Below are positions 1 through 63,365 of a DNA stretch of 64,000 bases, in pieces. Position 1 is the first letter of the stretch. Every line of letters starts with the position of its first letter. The notes beneath the pieces are model-generated. The model saw nothing but the letters and a program-made list of their open reading frames with translations, was not told where the DNA came from and did not search any database. The stretch is from a virus (taxonomy: Duplodnaviria; Caudoviricetes), in IMG/VR virus record IMGVR_UViG_3300033061_001635, positions 1 to 64,000 of that record. The stretch is one strand, 5' to 3'. The translations under genes were made by a program, and so were the position numbers.

Positions 1-400
1 GACCACCCGGACCACCACCCGGACCACCACCCGGACCGCCGGGACCACCCGGACCACCACCCGGACCGCCGTCGCCACCAAGTCCGCCGTCGCCACCAAG
101 TCCGCCGTCGCCACCCGGACCACCACCCGGACCACCCGGACCGCCGGGACCACCGCAAACTCGTACTCCTAATCCTACTCCTCGCCCAACGAGTACTCCT
201 GAGCCAACACCGGAACCACCATCGCCACCAAGTCCGCCATCGCCACCAAGTCCGCCATCGCCACCAAGTCCGCCATCGCCACCAAGTCCGCCGTCGCCAC
301 CAAGTCCACCAAGTCCACCCGGACCACCCGGACCACCACCCGGACCACCACCCGGACCGCCGGGACCACCCGGACCACCCGGACCACCGGGACCAGGAGG
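1..400 (+). repeat. GC-rich coding tandem repeats (GGACCACCC / GGACCACCACCC units; TCGCCACCAAGTCCGCCR 18-mers)
   Basis: Directly visible; encode GPP/GPPP and SPPSPP repeats. Confidence 0.95.
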
Positions 401-7256: not shown

Positions 7257-8194
7257 AAAATATCTGCTATATTATTAACAATAGATATATAAAATGGTTT
7301 ATACTTACAAACTCTCAGACCTTCGGCAACTGCAAATTTTATCACATTATTTCCAAATACATCTAATATTTTTTTAGCAGAATGAAAATCATTATTGTAA
7401 GCGATATAACTGAAAAATGCTTTACCAGCGTCTGTCAAATAGCTTCCAAAAATATATTTATAATTTGGATCAATTAAATATACACCTTTATTATTTTTTA
7501 ATATATTTGATATGCTTAAATCTCCATGAAAAAATGTTCCATCATGCTCTGGAAGATTTTGTATAATTTGTTTTGTTTTAGAGCTACAATAATTAATTGG
7601 CAATAAATTATTTATATATGTTTCAAACGGATAATTATGTATATTATTACGTTTAAACAAATTAATAATATCAATAATATCTGTGATATCTAGTTGATTA
7701 GAATTTTGGATTCTGGACGTAATAATTGTATTATCATTACAAAATAATATTTCAGGAACATTTACTATGTTTTTAGCTATAATATACCATTCTTTTTCTA
7801 ATAAAGAAGTTTTACATTTTTTAATAACGCGAGTATCTGTAAAAATAATTTGATTTTTTGTAAAATCACTTATTTGTCCATAAAAATTATCATATTCATT
7901 TATTGTCATATCATCAATATATAAATCAGCATATTCTTTATTAAAAGAAATTTCATCGTAAGGAACATTGTATATATCACAAAATTCTTTGATTAAATGT
8001 AAATATTTTTTTTCTTTTTCGGTTGTTGATAATTTACCTTTTGCACCTCTAGCTGTAACTATTTTTATATAAGTATTTGATGTTTTTTTAAGATGATGTA
8101 ATCTATTAATTAAAATATAATTAGGTTCTGATAAAGTAATATGACTTTTATTTCCTAATGCCAGTGTTCCATCAAAATCTACTGATATAATCAT
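7253..8194 (-). CDS. HAD phosphatase fused to APH/choline-kinase-like domain
   Basis: VDFDGT, TAR and YIDD HAD motifs; C-terminal HGDLSISN and LIDP kinase motifs. Confidence 0.8.
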   Translation of the reverse strand: MIISVDFDGTLALGNKSHITLSEPNYILINRLHHLKKTSNTYIKIVTARGAKGKLSTTEKEKKYLHLIKEFCDIYNVPYDEISFNKEYADLYIDDMTINEYDNFYGQISDFTKNQIIFTDTRVIKKCKTSLLEKEWYIIAKNIVNVPEILFCNDNTIITSRIQNSNQLDITDIIDIINLFKRNNIHNYPFETYINNLLPINYCSSKTKQIIQNLPEHDGTFFHGDLSISNILKNNKGVYLIDPNYKYIFGSYLTDAGKAFFSYIAYNNDFHSAKKILDVFGNNVIKFAVAEGLRVCKYKPFYISIVNNIADIL

Positions 8195-8733
8195 TATACA
8201 AATTCTATAGCAGACATATAGTCTTCTATATCTCCTAGTCTTTTAAAAGTATTCTCATATATTATATCTGAACCTATCATTCCAGACGCTATACTATTGG
8301 GATCAGTCATATTTGATATTGTTTTAGACAAATTTTTAATATAGTATATTCCACTACATTTAATATTTGATATATTATTTTTTTCGCTACAACCTATAAC
8401 TTTATTATTAGAATCAACAGACAGAGACCCGTATTTATTTATGCATGAGTGAAAAACAAAAATACAATCATTATTAGTATTAATTTTATTAATATTAAAT
8501 TCAAAAGGTATTATATCACAATCTATAATTAGTATATCTGTTTGCTGTGGTATTAATGATAAGGTAGATTTTCTATTTTTTGTTTTATTATGCCCAATTA
8601 ATTTAGCTTGTGGAATAATATCTAAAATCCATTCATATATTCTTTTATTTTTATAATATAATAAATACTTATCTATTGGACTTATATTTTTTAATCTTGA
8701 TCCTAGTCCGCCTATAGTAATATAACTATTCAT
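8194..8733 (-). CDS. short NTP transferase (sugar/alcohol-phosphate nucleotidyltransferase)
   Basis: GGLGSRLK...K, DCD, SEK, SGIYY and LG..EDY motifs. Confidence 0.8.
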   Translation of the reverse strand: MNSYITIGGLGSRLKNISPIDKYLLYYKNKRIYEWILDIIPQAKLIGHNKTKNRKSTLSLIPQQTDILIIDCDIIPFEFNINKINTNNDCIFVFHSCINKYGSLSVDSNNKVIGCSEKNNISNIKCSGIYYIKNLSKTISNMTDPNSIASGMIGSDIIYENTFKRLGDIEDYMSAIEFV

Positions 8734-50567: not shown

Positions 50568-52040
50568 ATGATTTTATGTGACCCGTCCGCAGAACGCGCT
50601 ATATTAAGTGGAATTTTGAAATACGGAGAGGATGCCTATTTGGATATTGCGGATATTATCCAGGAATCTTCTTTTACAATTGACAGTAATCAAATAATAT
50701 TTAAGTGTTTAAAAAACATTTGTGAAAAAGAACCAAAGCCGAACATTGATCTTGCGTCAGTGTACTCTTCGGCTCAAGAGCTTAATTTATCACATATATT
50801 GTCTAAAAAAGAAGAAACCCAACACCTAAAAGCTATTTTTGATTTTCCGGTACATTTAGAAAATATTAGAAAATTTGCATCCAAGATTAAAAAATTAGAG
50901 ATAGCTAGACTCTTACACAAGGAAATGGAGGATGTGCAAGAAAAGCTATTGGATGTTACTGGTTCAGAGTCAATATCTGCCATATTGGGTATTGCTGAAG
51001 AAAAGATATTCAATTTTACAAACGCACTTTCTGCAGAGAGCGATTCTGCTCCTAAGTTTATAGCAGAGAGTATAGATAATTACATAGAGTTTCTACAAAG
51101 TAATAAAGTAGATCAAATAGGAATACCTACTGGATTTCCAGCATACGATCAGGCGATAGGTGGAGGTTTAAGAAAAGGAACAGTTAATGTTATAGCGGCA
51201 CGACCAAAAGTAGGAAAAACGCTGCTCTCTGATAATATTGGATACTATATTGCGAGCAAGTTACAAATTCCTGTATTAAACATGGATACAGAAATGACCA
51301 AAGAAGATCATATCCATAGAATTTTGGCTATGTCATCAGAAATAGAAATATCAAAGATCGAGACAGGCAAGTTCACGGATACCCCAAGTTCTGCAACCAA
51401 AATAAAACAGGCAATAGACGAACTTAAAAATAGTAAGTTATATCATAAAAGCATAGCAGGAAAACCATTCGAGGAACAACTGTCTATTATGCGAAGATGG
51501 ATATCTAAAGAAGTTGGACTTAATGATGACGGAACAGCAAAAGACTGTGTTATTATTTATGACTATTTAAAACTAATGGATAGTACAGGAATAAACCAAG
51601 ATATGAAAGAATATCAGGTTCTTGGCTTTATGATGACAAGTTTACATAATTTTGCTATACAATATAAAGTCCCAATATTATCTTTTATACAATTAAATAG
51701 AGACGGTATCACAAAAGAAAGCACTGATACTGCGAGTGGATCAGATAGAATTATTTGGCTATGTAGTAATTTTACAATATTCAAAAGAAAAAGTGACGAA
51801 GAAATTGCTGAGGATGGGCAAGATGCGGGTAATAGGAAATTGGTTCCATTAATCAGTCGCCACGGCGGTGGATTAGATGACAATGATTATATTAATTGTC
51901 ACATGAAGGGCTGGTGTGCTAAAATAACAGAGGGACAAACCAGATTAGAACTACTACATGGATCAAAAAAGCAAAAAGGCGGATTTATAATCAATGACAA
52001 TAATGAAGATGAAGAAAAACAAGACATACCATTCGTATGA
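50568..52040 (+). CDS. dnaB: replicative DnaB helicase
   Basis: AERAIL, GIPTGF, AARPKVGKT, EM, DYL, QLNR, RHG. Confidence 0.95.
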   Translation: MILCDPSAERAILSGILKYGEDAYLDIADIIQESSFTIDSNQIIFKCLKNICEKEPKPNIDLASVYSSAQELNLSHILSKKEETQHLKAIFDFPVHLENIRKFASKIKKLEIARLLHKEMEDVQEKLLDVTGSESISAILGIAEEKIFNFTNALSAESDSAPKFIAESIDNYIEFLQSNKVDQIGIPTGFPAYDQAIGGGLRKGTVNVIAARPKVGKTLLSDNIGYYIASKLQIPVLNMDTEMTKEDHIHRILAMSSEIEISKIETGKFTDTPSSATKIKQAIDELKNSKLYHKSIAGKPFEEQLSIMRRWISKEVGLNDDGTAKDCVIIYDYLKLMDSTGINQDMKEYQVLGFMMTSLHNFAIQYKVPILSFIQLNRDGITKESTDTASGSDRIIWLCSNFTIFKRKSDEEIAEDGQDAGNRKLVPLISRHGGGLDDNDYINCHMKGWCAKITEGQTRLELLHGSKKQKGGFIINDNNEDEEKQDIPFV

Positions 52041-53172
52041 TCAATATCAACTTAAGAATTTATCAGACTTAGTGTGTGATGATATCGAGAATTTATTAAA
52101 TTCTTTAGGTATAGAATCATATAAAATATTTGATAAAATGGTCACTATGAGTTGCCCAATTCATGGTGGAGATAATGATTCTGCACTGAATCTATACTAC
52201 AAGGGAGACTCATATAGAGGAAACTGGAAATGTAGAACTCACCAGTGTGAGAATATTTTTAAGTCATCAATTATTGGTTTTATAAGAGGATGCTTGTCTA
52301 AAGATGGCGGATGGAATAAAGAAGGTGATGACATGGTGTCTTTTAAAGACGCTATAGACTTTGCTATTAAATTTTCTAATCACGACCCGGTCAATGATAA
52401 ACAAACGAGAAAAGTAAAAGAAAAAAATACGTTTGTTAATACTATAAAAAATATTTCTATAGACGTTAGTAATAAACCAAATGAAGTTGTTGTTCCAAGG
52501 AATTTGGTCATTAAGGCGCTAGACATACCATCACAATATTTCTTAGACAGAGGATTTTCTAAAGAAGTATTAATAAAGTACGACGTAGGAGACTGTATCA
52601 ATTCATCAAAAGAAATGAATAATAGAGCAGTTGTGCCGGTATATGATCAAAATATGAGGGGGATGATAGGCTGCACTGGCAGAAGCATACACGATAAATG
52701 TACAAACTGTAATTCTTTTCACGATATTAATGAAAAGTGTCCTAATGATAATGAAAAATGGCTTAGTTCCAAATGGAGACATAGTAAAAATTTTAAGACC
52801 CAGGAACATCTATATAATTATTGGTTTGCTAAAAAACATATCTTAGCATCAAAAACTGTGGTTATAGTCGAAAGCCCTGGCAATGTTTGGAGATTAGAAG
52901 AAGCAGGGATACATAATAGTATAGCAATATTTGGTTCGTCACTCGGATACAAACAAAAGGCCTTATTAGATATATCTGGAGCTATGAATATAGTAACAAT
53001 AATGGATAACGATAAGGCTGGTAAAGATGCAGCAAAACAAATCGAAGACAAATGTGGAAGAATATATAATATAAAACACATAGAGATTAATGCAAATGAT
53101 ATTGCAGAAATGAGCATTGATGATATAGTAACAACCATATCCCCACAGATAAAGGAATACGAATTATGTTAG
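51994..53172 (+). CDS. dnaG: DnaG-type primase
   Basis: CPIH...C...C zinc-binding domain; YFLDRGF; TOPRIM VES and DNDKAG. Confidence 0.9.
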   Translation: MTIMKMKKNKTYHSYDQYQLKNLSDLVCDDIENLLNSLGIESYKIFDKMVTMSCPIHGGDNDSALNLYYKGDSYRGNWKCRTHQCENIFKSSIIGFIRGCLSKDGGWNKEGDDMVSFKDAIDFAIKFSNHDPVNDKQTRKVKEKNTFVNTIKNISIDVSNKPNEVVVPRNLVIKALDIPSQYFLDRGFSKEVLIKYDVGDCINSSKEMNNRAVVPVYDQNMRGMIGCTGRSIHDKCTNCNSFHDINEKCPNDNEKWLSSKWRHSKNFKTQEHLYNYWFAKKHILASKTVVIVESPGNVWRLEEAGIHNSIAIFGSSLGYKQKALLDISGAMNIVTIMDNDKAGKDAAKQIEDKCGRIYNIKHIEINANDIAEMSIDDIVTTISPQIKEYELC

Positions 53173-53924
53173 TTTTAGGTATATCTGGCAAAAAACAGTC
53201 GGGTAAAACCACAGCAGGAAATTTTATTCTATCGCTATATCTTGCCAAACTAAATGCGAGTGAAAAACTTTATATAGATAATGATGGAAATATACTAATA
53301 TCAGATTTGTGTGGTGATAAATCATATGAGGGTATTTTTTCTATACAATCTATATTATCAAGAGAAATAATTTCTAGTGATATTTTATTATTTTTAGAGA
53401 AATTACAGAATGAAATAAAAATCTATAATTTTGCAGATATATTAAAAACAGACATATGCATGAATATACTAGGCTTGACTTATGAACAGTGCTATGGATC
53501 AGATGAAAATAAAAATGAATTAACGTCTGTTAAGTGGCCGTCAGAAATAGCCAATGATAAATCTAGTAAATTTATGACAGCGAGAGAAGTTATGCAATAT
53601 GTGGGTACGGATATCTTTAGAAAGATGGATACTAATGTTTGGGTAAAGTCAACCATTAATAAAATACTTAAAGAAAATCCTGAGTTAGCAATTATTACAG
53701 ATTGTCGATTTCCAAATGAAGTAGAAGCAATAAAAAATATTGGTGGAAAAGTATTGAGATTAACTAGGAGTCCATTTTTATCTAATCATATTAGTGAGAC
53801 AGTATTAGATAAAGAAAACTATGATTGGAATAATTTTGATCATGTTATTAATAACGAAAATAATAATCTATATGATCAATTCTCTGAGCTTAAAACCATT
53901 TTAGAAAAACTATTAAATCTATGA
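53166..53924 (+). CDS. deoxynucleoside monophosphate kinase
   Basis: GKKQSGKT, FAD.LK, REVMQYVGT, DCRFPNE, HISE. Confidence 0.9.
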   Translation: MLVLGISGKKQSGKTTAGNFILSLYLAKLNASEKLYIDNDGNILISDLCGDKSYEGIFSIQSILSREIISSDILLFLEKLQNEIKIYNFADILKTDICMNILGLTYEQCYGSDENKNELTSVKWPSEIANDKSSKFMTAREVMQYVGTDIFRKMDTNVWVKSTINKILKENPELAIITDCRFPNEVEAIKNIGGKVLRLTRSPFLSNHISETVLDKENYDWNNFDHVINNENNNLYDQFSELKTILEKLLNL

Positions 53925-54961
53925 TTATTACATACTTTCGAAGCAGTTCTTATAATACCCACAATATGTGTGAACAACAGTATTTTGGAGAATATGTGTT
54001 GGGATGGAGGGGTTTGTCTGGGCAGAAAGCAGATAAAGGAACTATCACTCATAAAATATTAGAAATATTAGCTGTTATTAAAAAAGCGCAGCAAGATCAG
54101 CAAGATACTATTAATGACGATTTGATCGGAGAAGTTAGTGTTCATAATTATGATTTAGATAATATAATAGATCAAGTGTACTCATACTACACTTCTAATG
54201 CACAACATCATAAGTGGTCACCGAAAGACCATAAAGATTGTAAAAATTGGGTCTATAAAGCTATAGAATTTAATAATGGAATGTTTGATCCAAGAAATCG
54301 AAACATACTATGTCCAGAGCAGCATTTTGATTTTGAAATTAAGAAATCTTGGGCTAAATATAGTTATGATACTAATGGAGAAAAATTAGAGGGTAATTTA
54401 GCTTTAAAGGGCACTATTGATCTGATAACACTAGTTAATGATTCTACCATAGAGATTATAGACTGGAAAACTGGTCGTAGATTAGACTGGGCAACAGGAG
54501 AAGAAAAAACTCAAGAAAAACTAGAAAAAGATCCTCAGTTAAAAATATATCATTACGCAATAAAACATCTATATCCTCATATTAAAAATATAATATTCTC
54601 AATATATTTTATTAATGATGGAGGTCCATTTTCTATATGTTTTCATGATTCTGATCTCAGTTCTACTGAAGATATGTTGAGACAAAAATTTGAAGCAGTT
54701 AGGAGCACCAAAAAACCGCGACTTAATAAAAGCTGGATGTGCAGTAAATTATGTCATTTTGGCAAAACAACATTTGAAGGAACTCATATACAGCCGATAG
54801 AAGAATATAGAGATGGACAAGTATGCAAAATTGGTCAAATAATGACAAAGTGTGAACAAATAAAGCATGATCTTGACCTTTATGGTATCGACACTACAAT
54901 GGGTTTGTATAAAAACAAAAATCACTCATTTGGAAGTTACAAGGCCCCAGGATCGATATGA
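53921..54961 (+). CDS. Cas4/RecB-like PD-(D/E)xK exonuclease
   Basis: GTITH, E, GTIDL, IIDWKTG, QLKIY; N- and C-terminal Cys. Confidence 0.85.
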   Translation: MIITYFRSSSYNTHNMCEQQYFGEYVLGWRGLSGQKADKGTITHKILEILAVIKKAQQDQQDTINDDLIGEVSVHNYDLDNIIDQVYSYYTSNAQHHKWSPKDHKDCKNWVYKAIEFNNGMFDPRNRNILCPEQHFDFEIKKSWAKYSYDTNGEKLEGNLALKGTIDLITLVNDSTIEIIDWKTGRRLDWATGEEKTQEKLEKDPQLKIYHYAIKHLYPHIKNIIFSIYFINDGGPFSICFHDSDLSSTEDMLRQKFEAVRSTKKPRLNKSWMCSKLCHFGKTTFEGTHIQPIEEYRDGQVCKIGQIMTKCEQIKHDLDLYGIDTTMGLYKNKNHSFGSYKAPGSI

Positions 54962-56829
54962 AACAAAAAACTTATTCTGTTTTACATGCACATTCTCACT
55001 ATAGTCTATTGGACGGATTAAGCAAGCCTAGTCAAATAGCCGAAAGATGCTTTAATGCTGGAATTAAAACCTGTGCAATAACTGATCATGGAACTATTTC
55101 CGGATGTGTTCAGTTTTATCAGGCGATGAAGGCCAAAAAGATTAAACCAATATTAGGTTGTGAACTTTACATACCTAAAAATGACTCATTTGTTAAAGAA
55201 AAAGAAAACAATAATCTGAGTCACTTCCTGGTTCTTGCTAAAAATTTAGCAGGATGGAATACTCTTGTGAAAATCATATCTGAAACAAATAGAATAGACA
55301 ACTTTTATCATAAGCCAAGAATCAGTTTTGATAGACTGGCCCCTATGTTGGATGGAAATATTATAGGCTTTTGTGGTCATTTAGGATCAAGTATATCAGA
55401 CTTGGTTGAGGAAAATCCTGATAACTATACTGATAAGGCAATATCTTTTATAGATCATATGAAAGAAATATTTGGAAAAGATAATTTCTTTCTAGAAGCT
55501 CAACTCATGGATCAGGAACTGAATCCTAAACAAAAAGAAATGACAGATATAATGAGAGAATTATCTGTTAAGACTAAAACCAAAATAATAGCCACCCCAG
55601 ATGCTCACTATTGTGAAAGAAAAGATGCTATTGATCAAAGAATTTTATTATGTAATAATCTTAAGACAACTTTGATAGATATAAATAAGAAACTCTTAGC
55701 CAACCAGGATGTGCCAATGAGTTGCTTTTTTAAATCGGACAATTATCATATTCCAGATCCAGAAGAAATGATGGAGTGGCATACTAAGGAAGAAATTGAA
55801 AATACTTTATATGTAGATTCAATATGCGAGGAGTATTCTATTCTTAACAAGCCATTACTTCCCGCTTTCGAATGCCCAAATAATTCTAATCCAGAAGAAT
55901 ATCTGAGACAATTATGTAGAGATGGTTGGAGAGAAAAGATAATGAATGATATTCCAGAATCTGAACATACAAAATATGCAGATAGAGTAAAATTAGAATT
56001 AGATATTTTACAAAAAGCTGGATTATCTAGTTACTTTCTTATAGTGCAAGATATTGTAAACTATGTCAAGAAGAGTGGATGGCTTCCCGGACCAGGAAGA
56101 GGAAGTGCTGCAGGGTGTTTGGTTTCCTATTTAATTGGTATTACTCAAATTGATCCGATCAAATATGATTTACTCTTTGAGAGATTTTATAATGAGGGCC
56201 GTAACACCGCAGATCATATCTCCATGCCAGATATTGATGTTGACGTTCCTATTACAAAAAGAGAACAAATTATAGAATATATTAAGAATAAATACGGTAT
56301 AGATAAAGTTAGTCAAATGATCACTTTTAATACTATGAAAGGTCGTGGCGCCTTAAAAGAAGTATTGAGAGTATATGATAATATTTCTTTCGAAGAGACA
56401 AACCGTATAACCAAGTTTATACCAGATGAGGCCAAAATTGCAGACGAACTACAAGAAATGAAGGAAGATACTGGAGAAGCTTCAATTATTCGTTGGGCGT
56501 TAGAAAATAATGTTGACAAACTCAAAGAATGGTGCTATATATCTAGTGACGGTTCATTGGCCGGACCGTTGGCAAAAAGATTCGAACAGGCTATTAGACT
56601 AGAAGGAACAAAATCTAATCAATCTAAACACGCGGCCGGTGTAGTAATTAGCAGCAAGAGCCTTGGCAGTGTATGCCCTATGGTTTATGATAATAAAAAC
56701 AAGCAGTCCATCGCGGGCATGGAAATGCAAGACTTAGAAAGTTTGGGTCTGATTAAATTTGATATTTTGGGAGTTGCTATGTTAGACAAAATCATGACAA
56801 TATCAGAAATTTTATCAAAAGGAGAATAA
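54958..56829 (+). CDS. dnaE: DNA polymerase III alpha, N-terminal part (PHP, palm, thumb)
   Basis: HAHSHYSLLDG, TDHG, DAHY, GRGSAAG, PDIDVD, HAAG, KFDILG. Confidence 0.95.
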   Translation: MKQKTYSVLHAHSHYSLLDGLSKPSQIAERCFNAGIKTCAITDHGTISGCVQFYQAMKAKKIKPILGCELYIPKNDSFVKEKENNNLSHFLVLAKNLAGWNTLVKIISETNRIDNFYHKPRISFDRLAPMLDGNIIGFCGHLGSSISDLVEENPDNYTDKAISFIDHMKEIFGKDNFFLEAQLMDQELNPKQKEMTDIMRELSVKTKTKIIATPDAHYCERKDAIDQRILLCNNLKTTLIDINKKLLANQDVPMSCFFKSDNYHIPDPEEMMEWHTKEEIENTLYVDSICEEYSILNKPLLPAFECPNNSNPEEYLRQLCRDGWREKIMNDIPESEHTKYADRVKLELDILQKAGLSSYFLIVQDIVNYVKKSGWLPGPGRGSAAGCLVSYLIGITQIDPIKYDLLFERFYNEGRNTADHISMPDIDVDVPITKREQIIEYIKNKYGIDKVSQMITFNTMKGRGALKEVLRVYDNISFEETNRITKFIPDEAKIADELQEMKEDTGEASIIRWALENNVDKLKEWCYISSDGSLAGPLAKRFEQAIRLEGTKSNQSKHAAGVVISSKSLGSVCPMVYDNKNKQSIAGMEMQDLESLGLIKFDILGVAMLDKIMTISEILSKGE

Positions 56830-56831
56830 AG

Positions 56832-57011
56832 ATGGAGAAAAAGTTTGCAGATTTAGCTGTTGGTGAAAAATTTAGTGTTAACGGTACGGAATACATTAAG
56901 TCAGACGAAGTTAGGATTAGCTGTTGCAGATCAGTGAATTGTTATGCAACTGCTGATTCTTCTCAAAAAGGACATTTTCCTGGTGACACAGTAGTAGTGG
57001 TAAATGGCTAA
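56832..57011 (+). CDS. small Cys-containing protein, 59 aa (not in ORF track)
   Basis: MEKKFADLAVGEKFSVNGTEYIKSDEVRISCCRSVNC...; AGGAG SD; overlaps the start of the next gene. Confidence 0.7.
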   Translation: MEKKFADLAVGEKFSVNGTEYIKSDEVRISCCRSVNCYATADSSQKGHFPGDTVVVVNG

Positions 57012-57699
57012 TACACAAAAAATTTGCGTTTTCGATTTGGAAACAGATGGTGCCAATCCAGATTTGTGCAGTCCTGTGCAAATAGCTGCGATTATGGTAG
57101 ATCCATTCAAATTGGAAATAATTAAAAATTCGGAATTCAATATTAATGTTAAACCATTAGCAATAGAAAATAATCCTGAATACTCATATGAAGATTCAGA
57201 CGTATTAGATTTTCATGCAAAGGTTAGAGGCTCTACAAAAGAAAGCGTTTTAGAGTCTTGGAAAACTTATCAAAAGCAAGAACATGGCTGGGGAATGTTT
57301 GTATCTTACCTAGATATGTATCATATTCGTAGTCATAGCAAAAAATCCTGCTTCTCAGCACCAATCGCAGCCGGATACAATATAAACAGATTTGATTTGC
57401 GTATTATAGAAAAATTAAGTACAAAGTACAATAATCTTAATAAAGAAGGAAGATCATCTTTATTTTATCCAAGAGATGTAATTGATATTATGAACTTAGT
57501 TTTTTATTGGTTTGAAGGCAATAACGAGCTTAAAAATTATACTCTTGATAACTTAAGAGATTATCTTGGTATAGATAAAACAGGATCACACGACGCTCTA
57601 AAAGATGTGAAAGATACTGCACAAATTTTAATTAGATTTTTAAAATTGCACAGGAATATTGCTAACAAAGTTAAGTTTAAATCATCATTCATTGGATAA
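57004..57699 (+). CDS. dnaQ: DEDDh 3'-5' exonuclease (Pol III epsilon-like)
   Basis: FDLETD, AGYN..FD, HDALKD. Confidence 0.9.
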   Translation: MANTQKICVFDLETDGANPDLCSPVQIAAIMVDPFKLEIIKNSEFNINVKPLAIENNPEYSYEDSDVLDFHAKVRGSTKESVLESWKTYQKQEHGWGMFVSYLDMYHIRSHSKKSCFSAPIAAGYNINRFDLRIIEKLSTKYNNLNKEGRSSLFYPRDVIDIMNLVFYWFEGNNELKNYTLDNLRDYLGIDKTGSHDALKDVKDTAQILIRFLKLHRNIANKVKFKSSFIG

Positions 57700-57710
57700 T
57701 AGTATTTATA

Positions 57711-59336
57711 ATGGCAGAGATATTTGCATTTGATTGTGGTTGTCAATTCAATATTATTGAAAACAATTCTAATTTTCCAAAAATAGAGTTTTCTCCAAAA
57801 ATCTCAAATATTAATTTGGAGTGTACAAAAACATGGGAATTAATATCATCAGGTAATACAAAGGGGTGTTTTCAGTTAGAATCTAGGCTTGGTCAAACCA
57901 TGGCAAGAAAACTAAAGCCACAAAATATACAGCAATTATCTGGGCTAATTAGTATTCTTAGACCAGGATGCTTGGAAGCTATGAGAGATGGTAAAAGCGT
58001 TTCTAATCATTATATAGATAAAAAAAATGGATTAGAGTCTATCGATTACTTTCATCCGGCATTAGAACCCATTCTTAAAGATACATATTCAGAAATGATA
58101 TATCAAGAACAGGCTATGTCTATAGCTAAAGAGTTGGCTGGCTTTAATCTTAAAGAAGCAGATGATCTTAGAAAGGCTATTGGCAAAAAACAAGCAGATA
58201 AAATGGCAAAGGTAAAAGAAAAGTTTATAGAGGGAGCTCATAAAAAGGGGCTTATAAACACAAGTGAAGCAGAACAAATATTTGAATGGGTGGAAAAAAG
58301 TCAAAGATATTTATTTAATGCTAGTCATTCTATTAGCTATGCTATGAATGCTTATCTATCTGCCTATGCTAAAGCCCACTTTCCAAAAATCTTTTTTGCT
58401 TCTTATCTCAGATTTGCAAAAGACAAAATAGACCCCCAACAAGAGATTAAAGAGTTGGTGCGTAATGCCGTGGAAATGGACATCAATGTTAGCATTCCTG
58501 ATTTTAGGAATCTAAATTCTTTATTTATTCTTAAGGACAAAAAAATATATTTTGGATTAACAGACATAAAAGGAGTTGGACAGTCAGTATATAATAAAAT
58601 AATTGAATTAAGTAAAAATGTAGACATAAATAACATGTCCTGGTTAAAAATGTTATGTCATATATTATTAAACATAAACTCTACAGCAACTAAGGCCCTA
58701 ATAAGCTGTGGTGCCTTTGATTATTATAAAAAACATAGAACAGAATTATTATTTGAATATGATATATGCAGCAAATTAACCAAAAAAGAATTATCTGAAT
58801 TTGTCAACTATATTGACTCAAATGATAAAGCCAATATGATTAATGCATTAAAGCATATACTAGAAAATACAAAACTAACTAAAAATAGAAGAGAAACTAT
58901 TGAGAATTGTATATACTTATTGGGCAATCCTCCCTATTCATTAACAGACAAGATAGAATGGCTTGCAGATTCTGAGAATGGTCTATTAGGAGCAAACATA
59001 ACATGCTCCAAACTAGATATATACGACGTCGGATCAACGAACTGCAATTGTAAAACTTTTAAAACATCATTATTAAAAGACAATATTATTATTGTTGGAG
59101 AAATTGCTAATATAAATATTACAAAAACTAAAACTGGTAAAAATCCAGGATTAGAGATGGCATTTCTAACAATAGAAGATCAATACGGCACTCTTGATAC
59201 GGTCGTATTTTTCCCAGAAGCATTTAGTAAATATAAAACTCATTTATTTATCGATAATATCTTAGTATTTGTTGGAAATAAAAGCAAATCCAAAGATGGT
59301 TTGATCGTTGAAAAATGTTTTATTCCGTCATCTTGA
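57711..59336 (+). CDS. dnaE: DNA polymerase III alpha, C-terminal part (fingers, HhH, OB)
   Basis: GCFQLES, RPG, IYQEQ, LRKAIGKK, FNASHS.SY, GL..IKGVG, MAFLTIED. Confidence 0.95.
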   Translation: MAEIFAFDCGCQFNIIENNSNFPKIEFSPKISNINLECTKTWELISSGNTKGCFQLESRLGQTMARKLKPQNIQQLSGLISILRPGCLEAMRDGKSVSNHYIDKKNGLESIDYFHPALEPILKDTYSEMIYQEQAMSIAKELAGFNLKEADDLRKAIGKKQADKMAKVKEKFIEGAHKKGLINTSEAEQIFEWVEKSQRYLFNASHSISYAMNAYLSAYAKAHFPKIFFASYLRFAKDKIDPQQEIKELVRNAVEMDINVSIPDFRNLNSLFILKDKKIYFGLTDIKGVGQSVYNKIIELSKNVDINNMSWLKMLCHILLNINSTATKALISCGAFDYYKKHRTELLFEYDICSKLTKKELSEFVNYIDSNDKANMINALKHILENTKLTKNRRETIENCIYLLGNPPYSLTDKIEWLADSENGLLGANITCSKLDIYDVGSTNCNCKTFKTSLLKDNIIIVGEIANINITKTKTGKNPGLEMAFLTIEDQYGTLDTVVFFPEAFSKYKTHLFIDNILVFVGNKSKSKDGLIVEKCFIPSS

Positions 59337-59361
59337 CATGTGCGTGTGGTCAGGATATAAT
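59333..59361 (+). promoter_or_regulatory. perfect sigma70 promoter TTGACA-17-TATAAT for ssb
   Basis: Exact consensus; the -35 overlaps the dnaE-C stop codon. Confidence 0.9.
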
Positions 59362-59398
59362 AGTTAGATTGAGGTTTTTATAAACAAGGAGTTTGATT

Positions 59399-59770
59399 AT
59401 GAATATAACTTTGCTAAAAGGTAATCTTGCTAGGGATCCGGAACTAAGAACAGTGAACACTGGAGGCAAGCAAACGTCTGTAGTTAATTTTACAGTTGCT
59501 GTCTCCAGAGATTATACAAAAGCCAATGGAGAAAAGGATAAGATTACATCTTTTATTAATTGCGAGGCTTGGGACAGTGGTGCTGAAATGATTTCGGAAT
59601 CCTTTAAAAAGGGGGATTTAGTAATGGTCGAAGGATCATTAAGAAATGATTCGTGGGAGAAGGATGGAGTTAAGCACAGCAGTCTGAAGGTTAGAGTAAA
59701 TAACTTTTCTAAGATTACTAGGCTAAGCAAAAATACTAAACAAGAAACTAGTGAGCCTGTTGCTTTCTAA
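59399..59770 (+). CDS. ssb: single-stranded DNA-binding protein
   Basis: GNLARDPELR, FTVAV, AW, KGDLVMVEGSL, C-terminal EPVAF; AAGGAG SD. Confidence 0.95.
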   Translation: MNITLLKGNLARDPELRTVNTGGKQTSVVNFTVAVSRDYTKANGEKDKITSFINCEAWDSGAEMISESFKKGDLVMVEGSLRNDSWEKDGVKHSSLKVRVNNFSKITRLSKNTKQETSEPVAF

Positions 59771-59796
59771 TTTATAACTATTTATACCATGAAGAT

Positions 59797-59825
59797 GGGG
59801 GGTGGCAAAAACACCCCCCGTTTTT
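59797..59825 (+). terminator. intrinsic terminator after ssb
   Basis: GGGGGGTG-gcaaaaa-CACCCCCC followed by TTTTT. Confidence 0.85.
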
Positions 59826-59830
59826 ATACT

Positions 59831-61492
59831 ATGCCAAAACTAAAAGTACTAATGTGTTCAGAAGCCAGTTTTATACACTCTGGTTTCGGTATATATACCA
59901 AAGAACTCTTATCAAGACTACATGCTACTCAAAAATATGAAATAGCAGAATTTGCATCTTACGGATTTGTTAATGATCCAAGAGACGTTAATATTCATTG
60001 GAAATATTATGCAAATGCTGTTAGAGATGACGATTACAGACATAAGGAATATGTATCCAGAGGAGACAATCAATTCGGCCGATGGAGATTTGAGAAAGTA
60101 TTACTGGATTTCAAACCAGATGTTGTTATTGATATCAGAGACTATTGGATGACAGCATATCAAAGAACATCTCCTTTAAGAAAATTTTTCCATTGGATTT
60201 TAATGCCAACAGTGGACTCATGCCCCCAGCAAGAAGAATGGATTGATACATTTTTAAATGCCAATGCAATATTTACGTATTCAGATTGGGGCGCTGAGGT
60301 TCTAAATAAACAGTCATCTGGTAAAATCAATTATATAGATACTGCGTCTCCGGGCATTGACTGTGATGTTTTTAAGCCCAAAAACAGGAATAAAATCAGA
60401 GCAAACTTTGATATCCCGCAGGACAGCATCGTTGTTGGTTCTGTTATGAGAAACCAAAAAAGAAAACTAATACCAGAGTTATTAACTACATTCAAAAAGG
60501 TATTAGATAATCTAAAAGAAAATAATCAAGAAAATCTATCTAAAAAATTATTTCTTTATCTGCACACAAGTTATCCTGATATGGGTTGGGACATTCCAGA
60601 ACTACTAAGACAATCTGGATTATCTAATAAGGTACTATTCACGTATTTATGCAAAAACTGTAGAGACGTCACATGTTCTAAGTTTCAGGGTCCAAATAAA
60701 ATATGTACCAAATGTCATAGTAAGACATGTAATTTACCATCTGTTACTGACGGGGTAACCTCAGAAACTCTAAGTAATATATACAATATATTTGATTTAT
60801 ATGTACAATATTCTATATGCGAGGGATTCGGGATGCCACAGGTTGAGGCTGGTGCTTGCGGCGTTCCTATTGCAACCGTTAATTATAGTGCAATGTGTGA
60901 TATTGTAAATAAATTAAATGCATATCCTATTAAGATAAAATCAGAATTTAAAGAATTAGAGACAAAAGCTATTAGAGTATATCCAGATAATGATGATTTA
61001 GCTAAATATATATTGGATTTTATTAAACAACCAGATTCCATTCTTAATAAGAAAAGATTTGAAATACATGAATTAACGCATAAGCATTATGATTGGACAA
61101 ATATTGCAAAAAAGTGGGAGAACTATTTAGATAAACTAGATAATTCTGGCTATAGAGCAAATTGGAATAATTCAAATTTTCTAGAACCAATACAAAAAAT
61201 GCCGGACAGTAACATAACAAATAATTTTGATAATATATTGATGTTACTGAATAATAATCTAAAAGATATTTCTCTAATTGGTAGTCAAAAAATATTAGAA
61301 CTATTGAATAATGCAGACTACGGCTTTATTCAAAATGGACCAACTAATCTAGGGCCATTTAGTTTTAAAGAAGTATATGAATATCTAAAAAATATTGTAG
61401 ATAATAATAATCAAGCAAAATCAGCACAGGATAGTAATGTGTCATTTGACGAAGACTTTATTGCTTATTCTAACATGAAAAGAAACTCATAA
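59831..61492 (+). CDS. GT4-like (GT-B) glycosyltransferase with Cys-rich insertion
   Basis: SGFG, RNQKRK, EGFGMPQVEAGACGVP; insertion CKNC....C.........CTKC....C. Confidence 0.9.
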   Translation: MPKLKVLMCSEASFIHSGFGIYTKELLSRLHATQKYEIAEFASYGFVNDPRDVNIHWKYYANAVRDDDYRHKEYVSRGDNQFGRWRFEKVLLDFKPDVVIDIRDYWMTAYQRTSPLRKFFHWILMPTVDSCPQQEEWIDTFLNANAIFTYSDWGAEVLNKQSSGKINYIDTASPGIDCDVFKPKNRNKIRANFDIPQDSIVVGSVMRNQKRKLIPELLTTFKKVLDNLKENNQENLSKKLFLYLHTSYPDMGWDIPELLRQSGLSNKVLFTYLCKNCRDVTCSKFQGPNKICTKCHSKTCNLPSVTDGVTSETLSNIYNIFDLYVQYSICEGFGMPQVEAGACGVPIATVNYSAMCDIVNKLNAYPIKIKSEFKELETKAIRVYPDNDDLAKYILDFIKQPDSILNKKRFEIHELTHKHYDWTNIAKKWENYLDKLDNSGYRANWNNSNFLEPIQKMPDSNITNNFDNILMLLNNNLKDISLIGSQKILELLNNADYGFIQNGPTNLGPFSFKEVYEYLKNIVDNNNQAKSAQDSNVSFDEDFIAYSNMKRNS

Positions 61493-62493
61493 TGAATATT
61501 CTTTATATAGGTCCATATAGACAAAGGTCAATGGTTGGCCTTACATCTCTGTTTATATTGATGAATCTTTTGCAAAATAAACAACACAAGATATCATCCA
61601 GACCGTTATATCAGGAAACAGAACCGGTCAATCAAAACATAATACAAGATATTGTAAGAGCAGAGCATGAAAGATACGATAGCTATGATATTGTTATTCA
61701 GCACACAACTCCTGATATGGCTATCAAAATAAATGCCGTTAAAAAGAATATAATTATTCTAATAAATAATGAAGAAATTTTATCAGAAGATGTGGTAGAA
61801 AAATTGGCTGGATTCGATACTATATTAGTAGACAATAAAACCACATACAATTTGTATAAAGAATACTATCCAAGAATAGCGAGTAAACTAACAACATATG
61901 ATTATGATTTACTTATACCTCCTATGCAACTTACTCAATTTGATGTAAATCCATTTGGAATAACTAAGAAACTATATTTTATTGGAGACTATAAAGACAA
62001 TATAAATAATATATATAATATTTGTCATGCTTTTATCAAACATTCTGTTAACTGTGTTGATGAGTATAGTCTAATATTGTATCTATTTAATATAGATCCC
62101 AGCATTAAACAAAACATTACTAGTAATATTAATCAAATATATTCGTCTTATGGAATTAAATATGCTATAAATAGAATTATGATAGCTCCTATAGACTGTA
62201 CTTTAGAAAATATAATAACAGCCCACAATACAGCATCCATATTTATCAATATAAACGAAAGTAATTCTAATTCTTTAAATTGTAAAATTTGTAATTCCTT
62301 AAATAAGAACGTATTAAGTTTTAATGATACTGATTATATTTTTGAATTTACTAGAAATAATAGAGTATCCGGTAAAAGATGTTTAGGAATTTCGTGTGGC
62401 TCTATAGACAATAAAATAAATAAGGCATTGAATAACAATTATACAGACCAACCGCAACCATTTAAAAAACAACATATTAGCACCCTCATATGA
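61492..62493 (+). CDS. degenerate glycosyltransferase-like protein
   Basis: MNILYIGPYR and YDIVIQHTTP resemble GT-B N-domains; no donor-binding Glu motif seen. Confidence 0.5.
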   Translation: MNILYIGPYRQRSMVGLTSLFILMNLLQNKQHKISSRPLYQETEPVNQNIIQDIVRAEHERYDSYDIVIQHTTPDMAIKINAVKKNIIILINNEEILSEDVVEKLAGFDTILVDNKTTYNLYKEYYPRIASKLTTYDYDLLIPPMQLTQFDVNPFGITKKLYFIGDYKDNINNIYNICHAFIKHSVNCVDEYSLILYLFNIDPSIKQNITSNINQIYSSYGIKYAINRIMIAPIDCTLENIITAHNTASIFININESNSNSLNCKICNSLNKNVLSFNDTDYIFEFTRNNRVSGKRCLGISCGSIDNKINKALNNNYTDQPQPFKKQHISTLI

Positions 62494-63365
62494 ATAATCC
62501 CATATTAAACATAGCCTACGGTGTCTTAGATTCTCAAATAAATGTTCTATATGAACCAGGATCAAGGATATTCGATATTGCTATTAATAATACAGATAAT
62601 ATAAATTTTTGTCTTACTAATGATATATGTCAAAATTATTATTATGATATGTATTTTTCTAATAACATTCTAACAGTATCTGATAAAAAAACAATTAATG
62701 ATAAAAGACATATTAAAACTGTGGTAGCAATTCATGACCCTCCTCCGCCATCTTTTAAAAAAGAAGATATAATAATCTTTCATAATAAATGTAAAGATAT
62801 ATATAAAATTATTTTAGGTCAAGATATAGCAAATTTTTGGGGATTTAAAAAATCAGAAAAAACTTTCATAATAGACTATGGAATACCAAAAATATCAGAA
62901 TTAGAAGACAATAAAACAAAAAATTTATTAATATTTAATTTAGAAAATAACCCACAAGTAGATTTATTTTATAAAAACATTAACGCATCAACTGCTAATG
63001 GAATTGATATTATTAAAAAAATAGATCCAAATACTTCCATAGATTATTTAGTATCATTAATTTCTAAATATAAAGTTTGCATGGATAATGGAAATAAAGA
63101 AAATATACTATATTCGCTATCAGCAGGAGTGCCCTGTATAACAACTAAAAACTTCCATTTATCAAACAACCTTATTATTAAAGTGGAAAGCTTCCAAGAA
63201 GCCGCTGACATGATAAATAAACTTATTAATACCAGCTTAGCCAAAGAAGAATCACAAGCCTGCTCACAAAAGATTATTAATGAGTATGACTACAATACAT
63301 TTAAAACACGAATTGTACAAACACTATCTGCAATAAAAAGAAATGAGATATTTTATTATGAATAG
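62490..63365 (+). CDS. degenerate GT-B-like protein
   Basis: YSLSAGVPCITT at the position of the EA..G.P motif. Confidence 0.5.
   Translation: MNNPILNIAYGVLDSQINVLYEPGSRIFDIAINNTDNINFCLTNDICQNYYYDMYFSNNILTVSDKKTINDKRHIKTVVAIHDPPPPSFKKEDIIIFHNKCKDIYKIILGQDIANFWGFKKSEKTFIIDYGIPKISELEDNKTKNLLIFNLENNPQVDLFYKNINASTANGIDIIKKIDPNTSIDYLVSLISKYKVCMDNGNKENILYSLSAGVPCITTKNFHLSNNLIIKVESFQEAADMINKLINTSLAKEESQACSQKIINEYDYNTFKTRIVQTLSAIKRNEIFYYE

Follow-up and report, generated by a model that had tools for sequence, protein, structure and literature searches.

DnaE is the textbook single-chain bacterial replicase, and the only well-studied natural split of it that we know of relies on trans-splicing by an intein. 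A replicative polymerase made as two chains, gp43A and gp43B, is reportedly found in T4-related phages (attributed to Petrov et al. in 2006). The split DnaE of cyanobacteria, joined by the Ssp/Npu split intein, and the fractured genes of phages, in which a split intein is accompanied by a free-standing homing endonuclease, are treated by Dassa et al. (2009; PMC2677866), where the splitting of Aeh1 nrdA by the endonuclease mobE is also described. PhiKZ has an intein-free, two-chain family-B polymerase, DNAP-N/DNAP-C, solved by cryo-electron microscopy (PMC13648687), and a minimal split Pol III alpha, with a catalytic module drawn from two proteins, is known from T4-like jumbo phages (Iyer et al., 2021; PMC7824862). 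Finally, the cultured Rossellomorea phage phiT1 (PV767480) carries gp20 (573 amino acids), gp19 (49 amino acids) and gp18 (469 amino acids), of which gp20 and gp18 are both annotated 'DNA polymerase III subunit alpha'; no publication on this split was found in the literature. Here we describe a 64,000-nucleotide (nt) stretch of phage DNA (the window), the first 64 kb of IMG/VR virus record IMGVR_UViG_3300033061_001635 (Caudoviricetes), in which DnaE is encoded in two genes, dnaE-N and dnaE-C, with two further genes between them. Our literature search returned no paper describing this DnaE split.

The four genes lie head to tail on the plus strand in the order dnaE-N (54958-56829, 623 amino acids), m59 (56832-57011, 59 amino acids), exo (57004-57699, 231 amino acids) and dnaE-C (57711-59336, 541 amino acids), separated by 2, -8 and 11 nt. 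These open reading frames (ORFs) are those given in a preliminary description of the locus. A single continuous polypeptide is not encoded: the halves are two ORFs 881 nt apart. Pfam, profile and structure alignments place PHP, palm, thumb and the first fingers helix on the N-half, with PHP (PF02811) matched at residues 9-182 (E 4e-36) and the DNA_pol3_alpha palm (PF07733) at residues 314-605 (E 6e-75). The same approaches assign fingers, HhH region and OB fold to the C-half, through the finger domain (PF17657, residues 30-180, E 1e-44), HHH_6 (PF14579, residues 257-346, E 4e-10) and a weak OB match (residues 460-531, 23.2 bits against a 27-bit cut-off). The chain ends after the OB fold, and nothing in it matches the C-terminal part of E. 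coli alpha. The preliminary description had put PHP and all three catalytic aspartates on the N-half, and this holds: D425, D427 and D602 do not vary among 17 relatives, and the nine metal-ligand positions of PHP (H10, H12, D19, H44, E69, H89, H141, D215 and H217) are kept and are invariant or nearly so in the same set.

Both halves were aligned to full-length enzymes. Against phrog_405, a full-length phage DnaE profile of 1190 positions, the N-half spans 40-612 and the C-half 622-1052, with a 9-position gap between them. In structure alignments, N-half residues 6-610 correspond to Taq alpha 7-626 and C-half residues 34-343 to Taq 648-950, while C-half residue 31 corresponds to E. coli 586. 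The N-half stops 18 residues past KFDILG (about 15 had been estimated), and no more than about 5 residues follow the homologous helix. This puts the break about 20 residues past the third catalytic aspartate, near E. coli 575-585 and Taq 640-647, following what we take from the E. coli and Taq structures to be the first helix of the fingers domain. Judged from these alignments, the break lies in a length-variable linker at the palm/fingers boundary, as the preliminary description had proposed. In fused relatives the distance from KFD to FQLES varies from about 40 to about 50 residues, which indicates that the linker tolerates insertions and deletions.

The C-half opens with a leader of about 27 residues (57711-57791, plus strand), recognised in alignments by the conserved motif [YF]-x-[FY]-[DEPS]-C-G-C-x-F. 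Neither the aligned solved DnaE chains nor the fused relatives have an equivalent stretch, homology beginning only at residues 31-34, and the novel N-terminal extension noted earlier is thus confirmed. The C-G-C element recurs in a locus of 52% identity (L093), where the C-half starts ...F-P-C-G-C, and the leader is missing from L062, L069, L075, L078 and phiT1.

The arrangement is widespread. A word-indexed search of JGI, ENA, Logan and NCBI assemblies recovered hundreds of proteins of 620-623 amino acids at 72-97% identity, on contigs of up to 234 kb. The proposed check on whether related contigs keep both split and gene order was positive in 80 IMG/VR loci: the order dNMP kinase, PD-(D/E)XK nuclease, dnaE-N, m59, exo, dnaE-C, SSB, glycosyltransferase is kept in every contig long enough to hold it (about 60 of the 80), down to 67% N-half identity and across many different metagenomes. 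The tight spacing, including the 8-nt overlap of m59 and exo, is retained in most loci. Further out, an exhaustive search against 50%-identity cluster representatives was used, and its best 150 matches (39-67% identity) are mostly 540-690 amino acids long. In most of the motif-bearing split representatives among them (about 135, at 39-65% identity) the N-half stops 18-31 residues past the start of K-[FL]-D-[IL]-L-G, with longer tails of up to 54 residues in about ten. Pairwise ratios of nonsynonymous to synonymous substitution (dN/dS; Nei-Gojobori, unsaturated pairs) are 0.09 for dnaE-N, 0.28 for m59, 0.08 for exo, 0.11 for dnaE-C and 0.31 for the C-half leader; purifying selection acts on all four genes.

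Elements that could join the halves were sought at several levels. In a Pfam scan neither half matched a Hint or intein family, while the same kind of scan detects inteins in the relatives P0124, P0127, P0130, P0135 and P0144. An Rfam scan returned no intron, group I and II included, at E up to 1, its only two hits being chance-level matches to eukaryotic small-RNA families. The Pfam result agrees with the earlier statement that the junctions carry no intein signature. Furthermore, the 881 nt separating the halves are entirely coding, and with gaps of 2, -8 and 11 nt there is no room for a joining element. No N- or C-intein fragments flank the break in the manner of cyanobacterial DnaE, the residues in excess of homology being about 5 on the N-half and about 27 on the C-half. 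The cyanobacterial break site (EY|CFNKSH) is unbroken here, RYLFNASH running continuously inside the C-half as the preliminary description had reported. Neither does a homing endonuclease lie between the halves, as it would in a fractured gene; m59 and the DEDDh exonuclease are found there instead, and a fractured-gene layout was seen only in locus L034, at another site. There the C-half has an extra break at FNK|SH, which lies three residues away from the cyanobacterial position, where an N-intein after ...FNK, a free-standing 305-amino-acid endonuclease-like ORF and a C-intein ending ...SN before SH follow one another (L034:8669-11682) and leave DnaE in three pieces. An intein-mediated break is therefore present in the same family, and the palm/fingers break is unlike it. 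Separately, P0130 and P0144 have no palm/fingers break but terminate, past the finger domain, in an N-intein fragment, perhaps at this FNK|SH site too.

A split that is conserved, under selection and free of inteins and introns is by far best read as a non-covalent two-chain polymerase, and on this sequence evidence we consider it probable that alpha-N and alpha-C work in this way. The replicative polymerase of the phage would then be a DnaE-type member of the C family with its catalytic alpha chain divided between two polypeptides. Of these, alpha-N would bring PHP, the whole palm with its three aspartates, the thumb and the first fingers helix; alpha-C would supply the remaining fingers along with the HhH region and OB fold; and the two would re-associate non-covalently along the palm/fingers interface, which is intramolecular in ordinary DnaE. 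Because the four genes sit in one terminator-free, translationally coupled array, their products should be made together in fixed ratios. The nested DEDDh exonuclease would most likely be the proofreading partner, the m59 beta-barrel may be an accessory or assembly factor, and m59 and the C-G-C leader would help assembly. Several observations count against this picture. No gene for a beta clamp or clamp loader was detected in the phage genome, so processive replication would need host or unknown factors. The PHP domain (window 54958-55600) keeps all nine metal ligands and its site looks intact, so a separate exonuclease is not obviously needed for proofreading; PHP may itself be a 3'-5' exonuclease, which would give the phage two candidate proofreaders. 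In addition, AlphaFold2 produced a poor model of alpha-C alone, with a mean predicted local distance difference test score (pLDDT) of 62.9 and a leader at about 65-72 whose three short strands do not lend themselves to interpretation.

Other explanations need to be set against the two-chain polymerase. The halves could be ligated by an unrecognised split intein, tiny or atypical, with the C-half leader as its C-part; in the window this leader closes with ...E-N-N, followed by a serine. The leader is indeed conserved and cysteine-rich, inteins are common in this DnaE family, and the N-N-S of the window superficially resembles a C-intein/+1 junction. However, N-N-S is not conserved, no Hint or intein family is detected by Pfam on either half, and the leader is wholly missing in L062, L069, L075, L078 and phiT1, all of which are split at the same place. 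The material available for such an intein, about 5 extra residues on the N-half and the leader of about 27, is to our knowledge far below the size of any known intein, and we regard ligation of this kind as very improbable. We judge joining at the level of RNA or translation, by an ORF-containing intron, trans-splicing or long-range ribosomal bypass, to be just as improbable. An apparent short hop near codon 14 of the N-half in some relatives suggests that recoding may occur in the lineage. Nonetheless, no group I or II intron was found with Rfam at E up to 1, the two proteins encoded in the 881 nt have starts of their own, a conserved coupling and sequences kept by purifying selection, and other lineages hold three to five genes (about 1.7-1.8 kb) between the halves.

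It is also conceivable that the halves do not reassemble, either because alpha-N is active alone or with another partner while alpha-C serves as a separate DNA-binding factor, or because the phage uses the host replicase. The whole catalytic palm is on alpha-N, one metagenomic relative (P0252) has its N-half fused to a cpYpsA/SLOG domain instead, and neither a clamp nor a clamp loader was detected in the phage. Against this, the DnaE fingers hold the FQLES region, which binds the incoming nucleotide and the template, and these FQLES-bearing fingers lie on alpha-C. Both halves are equally constrained (dN/dS of 0.09 and 0.11) and always co-occur in order, and fused versions are nested in the same clade, which argues that the N- and C-parts remain a single functional unit. 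We consider the absence of reassembly improbable. The chance that the break is an assembly or gene-calling artefact, or that dnaE is a decaying pseudogene, is negligible: dozens of contigs, assembled independently and drawn from different samples, show one and the same architecture, purifying selection is strong, and no other polymerase was found in the complete genome. The artefact at the junction that the preliminary description had entertained is refuted by those independent contigs and by the selection acting on the genes.

The exonuclease belongs to the DEDDh (DnaQ/RNase T) superfamily of 3'-5' exonucleases (Pfam RNase_T/DEDDh, E 6e-11), and D11, E13, D131, H196 and D201 are invariant in 17 relatives, which upholds the claim of an intact exonuclease that lies, with a 59-amino-acid ORF, tightly spaced between the halves. 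It matches phrog_192, 'DNA polymerase exonuclease subunit' (E 1e-22), and its closest solved relative is the PolC exonuclease domain, at an E of only 2e-6. Its nesting between the halves is a conserved feature that extends to lineages of only 43-52% identity. In L093 the order is N-half, 122 amino acids, exo, 115, 70 and 84 amino acids, C-half; in L090 (43% identity and early-branching in the clade we term aquatic) it is N-half, a UDG-like gene, 150 amino acids, exo, C-half. We consider it somewhat more likely than not that the exonuclease is a polymerase subunit, and it may act in the manner of epsilon. It has a conserved basic/aromatic C-terminal tail, K-V-K-F-K-x-S-F (57640-57699). The C-half in turn contains a strongly conserved stretch, P-P-Y-S-L-x-D-K-I-E-W (58920-58970), with P-P-x-S-L-x-D-x-I-x-W invariant just N-terminal to the OB domain, at a position presumably equivalent, roughly, to the internal clamp-binding motif of E. 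coli alpha. Both this motif and the exonuclease tail could be partner-binding peptides.

The 59-amino-acid protein m59 was found in all 80 loci and has no Pfam domain. F14, C31, C32 and N36 are invariant, whereas the third cysteine is variable. It is predicted to be a small, all-beta, SH3-like barrel (pLDDT 92.8), for which fold searches with the predicted model returned generic SH3-like, KOW or Tudor barrels only (Z of at most 5.0, Foldseek E of at least 0.14) and no specific structural relative. In the protein atlas it matches only unnamed viral clusters, and among PHROGs only phrog_2183 (E 7e-4), to which no function is assigned. A search with a hidden Markov model of m59 detected no homologue in loci where DnaE is fused or belongs to a more distant split lineage, and the protein is known only from the subclade of the window. 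Theta (HolE) was entertained as an identity for m59; theta is a helical protein and the m59 model is all-beta, so m59 is not theta-like. A strict covariation of the m59 cysteines with the C-G-C leader was likewise rejected, given that L062, L069, L075 and L078 lack the leader and keep Cys-Cys. A multimer prediction was run on alpha-N 296-623 (without PHP), alpha-C 1-350 and exo, with m59 as the scored partner; its interaction prediction scores from aligned errors (ipSAE) were 0.01 and 0.00, which speaks neither for nor against a complex. That m59 is a polymerase subunit is possible, though we are inclined to doubt it. More speculative still, and in our view unlikely, is a four-protein core in which the Cys-Cys of m59 and the C-G-C leader of alpha-C would form a metal or disulfide clasp that replaces the peptide bond and docks the exonuclease, in a split that would be ancestral in a very large aquatic phage clade and re-fused at least twice. 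Elsewhere on the same genome, a minus-strand frame that is open stop-to-stop for about 2160 codons (G000:C1:75434-81925, outside the window) is weakly matched by the m59 profile (E 0.0016) and may encode a repeated small beta-barrel domain.

The phylogeny of the family was examined with FastTree (148 N-half rows) and IQ-TREE (46 rows). The aquatic clade has a support of 100, and its early branches are split. Six fused forms make up two well-supported clades nested inside it, and a tree uniting all fused rows was rejected by the approximately unbiased test (difference in log-likelihood 179, p 1.5e-4), and with it a split that happened once and was never reversed, the group having been set after the tree was inspected. 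The fused genes occur in syntenic phages, as 1151 amino acids in L083 and 1133 amino acids in L082, within the same neighbourhood, and have short junctions without the C-G-C leader. Upstream of DnaE, L083 encodes DnaB, primase, dNMP kinase, NT5C, PD-(D/E)XK nuclease, a 167-amino-acid ORF, a 223-amino-acid RNase_T-like exonuclease and an HNH-like ORF. With regard to origin, the choice lies between a split that is ancestral and has been reversed twice and one that arose many times at one place; parsimony on these trees favours an ancestral split with reversal. The bacterial homologues recovered from genome contigs are all fused, the only split matches there being four phage-like contigs. These four close matches are binned into metagenome-assembled genomes of different phyla, so the simplest reading is mis-binning and no host can be inferred. 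We found no cultured relatives more than 35% identical to the halves of the window. 'Bacteriophage sp.' faecal contigs among the top matches were considered as split relatives and set aside, since they carry ordinary full-length, bacterial-looking DnaE genes.

In L070, a 231-amino-acid HNH-like ORF (7872-8567) lies exactly between the N-half stop and m59, and HNH-like ORFs also adjoin the fused genes (L083:4985-6031, L082:4331-5050). An origin of the split by endonuclease invasion, as for Aeh1 nrdA (PMC2677866), fits these observations, which do not show it. The HNH-like ORFs of L070, L083 and L082, with their C-x-C-x-C-G zinc-finger-like motifs, move around the replication module.

PhiT1 offers a second lineage in which DnaE is broken in the same loop: gp20 ends 20 residues past KFDLLG and gp18 starts just before the FQLES block. 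Since phiT1 is cultured, a phage with DnaE broken at this position is viable. It branches outside the aquatic clade, among the single-gene DnaEs of Firmicute phages (DZ1, 1068 amino acids; Curly, 1029; MTATph1, 1070), and its split is probably independent of that of the aquatic clade, the relevant nodes being weakly placed. If so, the loop would be a permissive break point. Two further departures from the usual DnaE layout were seen. In P0252 (762 amino acids, metagenomic), the dnaE-N half is C-terminally fused to a circularly permuted YpsA/SLOG domain (PF12694, 1.6e-35) and lacks the usual end. In Bacillus phage vB_BceM_WH1 (L086; LC597490: 194353-198551), DnaE is annotated as gp235, gp236 and gp237, spaced by about 720 and 400 unannotated nt, an interruption of another kind that is perhaps due to introns or endonuclease insertions.

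The expression signals of the locus, read from the sequence, suggest close coordination of the four genes. An AGGAG Shine-Dalgarno sequence for m59 (56820-56824, plus strand) lies 7 nt before its ATG, within the last codons of dnaE-N (K-G-E-stop). The N-half C-terminus ...G-E is conserved across loci, which may be explained by this embedded signal. The m59 stop lies within the exo start in an 8-nt overlap, ATGGCTAA (57004-57011, plus strand), an arrangement that would couple translation of the two genes. The C-half starts 11 nt past the exo stop with no obvious Shine-Dalgarno sequence. No terminator-like sites were found in 52251-62500. A sigma-70-type promoter consensus (59333-59361; TTGACA, 17 nt, TATAAT) is perfect at 12 of 12 positions, as a consensus match only; the dnaE-C stop codon (59334-59336) falls within it, and ssb begins about 30 nt further downstream.

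A separate irregularity affects the beginning of dnaE-N in about 13 related loci (L011, L016, L031, L034, L048-L050, L053, L065, L070-L072 and L074), where the N-half is broken at about codon 14, within the H-x-H-S-H motif of PHP. The reading CAC GTC CAT TCY is followed by a stop (TAA or TAG) and 4-6 bases, after which the frame returns at (S)-H-Y/F-S-L-L-D-G. The result is a stop-containing gap of 7-9 nt, often with matching serine codons on either side. A stem, GGACGTG...CACGTCC, joins the start-codon region to the take-off site and is compensated in L065 as GGACATG...CATGTCC. Such a break resembles a ribosomal hop or bypass over a short distance. The N-half of the window is uninterrupted at this site (54958-55020; CAT GCA CAT TCT CAC TAT).

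The source record is 175,133 bp long, is rated 100% complete by CheckV and has a G+C content of 34%, with seven tRNA genes, all at the far end; the phage is large, uncultured and aquatic. The split genes sit in a long plus-strand replication array whose members overlap or nearly abut: DnaB-type helicase (50568-52040), Toprim primase, dNMP kinase, PD-(D/E)XK nuclease (53921-54961, directly upstream of dnaE-N, whose start overlaps its stop by 4 nt), the four genes of the split locus, SSB (59393-59770, downstream of dnaE-C) and glycosyltransferase. There is a single DnaE palm in the whole genome, and neither PolA nor PolB was detected in it. At the start of the contig, window positions 2-395 hold dense tandem repeats with periods of 9, 12, 18 and 30 nt, ACCACCCGGACC and CCATCGCCACCAAGTCCG being among the units, and a G+C content of about 41%; on the minus strand they would read as Gly-rich, collagen-like triplets.

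A very large clade of phages thus keeps its DnaE cut through the catalytic core, palm against fingers, with no splicing element. This provides a natural, evolution-tested split site for C-family polymerases and a clear case in which a gene separates the two halves of its probable partner. Furthermore, the locus is a system in which to study how gene order and translational coupling support the assembly of a complex. The ancestral-looking split, the nested fused forms and the seemingly independent break in phiT1 bear on how genes fracture and re-fuse. For annotation, the two ORFs are better described as two subunits than as fragments or pseudogenes.

Among known systems, ordinary single-chain DnaE has much in common with the locus. 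The solved enzymes (Taq, 2HPI/3E0D; E. coli, 2HNH/5FKU; M. tuberculosis, 5LEW) have the same domains in the same order, the same aspartate triad and PHP ligands, and the same FQLES and FNxSH motifs, and single-chain examples are found in phages such as Bacillus phages DZ1 and Curly and Streptomyces phage Circinus. The window differs from them in having two genes with two others between, the C-G-C leader, and no match to the C-terminus of E. coli alpha. PhiT1 resembles it in the loop that is broken and in the micro-ORF between the parts, but lacks both the C-G-C leader and a nested exonuclease, and its 49-amino-acid ORF does not match the m59 profile. The cyanobacterial enzyme likewise encodes alpha in two genes; there, and in the fractured genes of phages, an intein is present and the break is at another site, whereas the window has an exonuclease and a micro-protein and no homing endonuclease. 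PhiKZ, Aeh1 nrdA and gp43A/gp43B show that a replication enzyme can be made as two chains without splicing, and the HNH ORF in the inter-half gap of L070 is consistent with a homing-endonuclease origin as in such split phage enzymes. In contrast to the PhiKZ polymerase, which is of family B, the split described here concerns family C, is old and widespread where the others are confined to particular lineages, and has a functionally related nuclease between its parts. The minimal version in jumbo phages lacks PHP and other domains, has its genes far apart and occurs alongside a family-B replicase, whereas the window has the full domain set including PHP, adjacent genes and no PolB, DnaE being its only polymerase. 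The preliminary description had accordingly overstated the novelty of the locus, in that phiT1 already annotates a break in the same loop and intein-free split phage replicases were known in family B. What is new is the occurrence of such a split in family C, its site, the nested exonuclease, its age and spread, and the apparent re-fusions.

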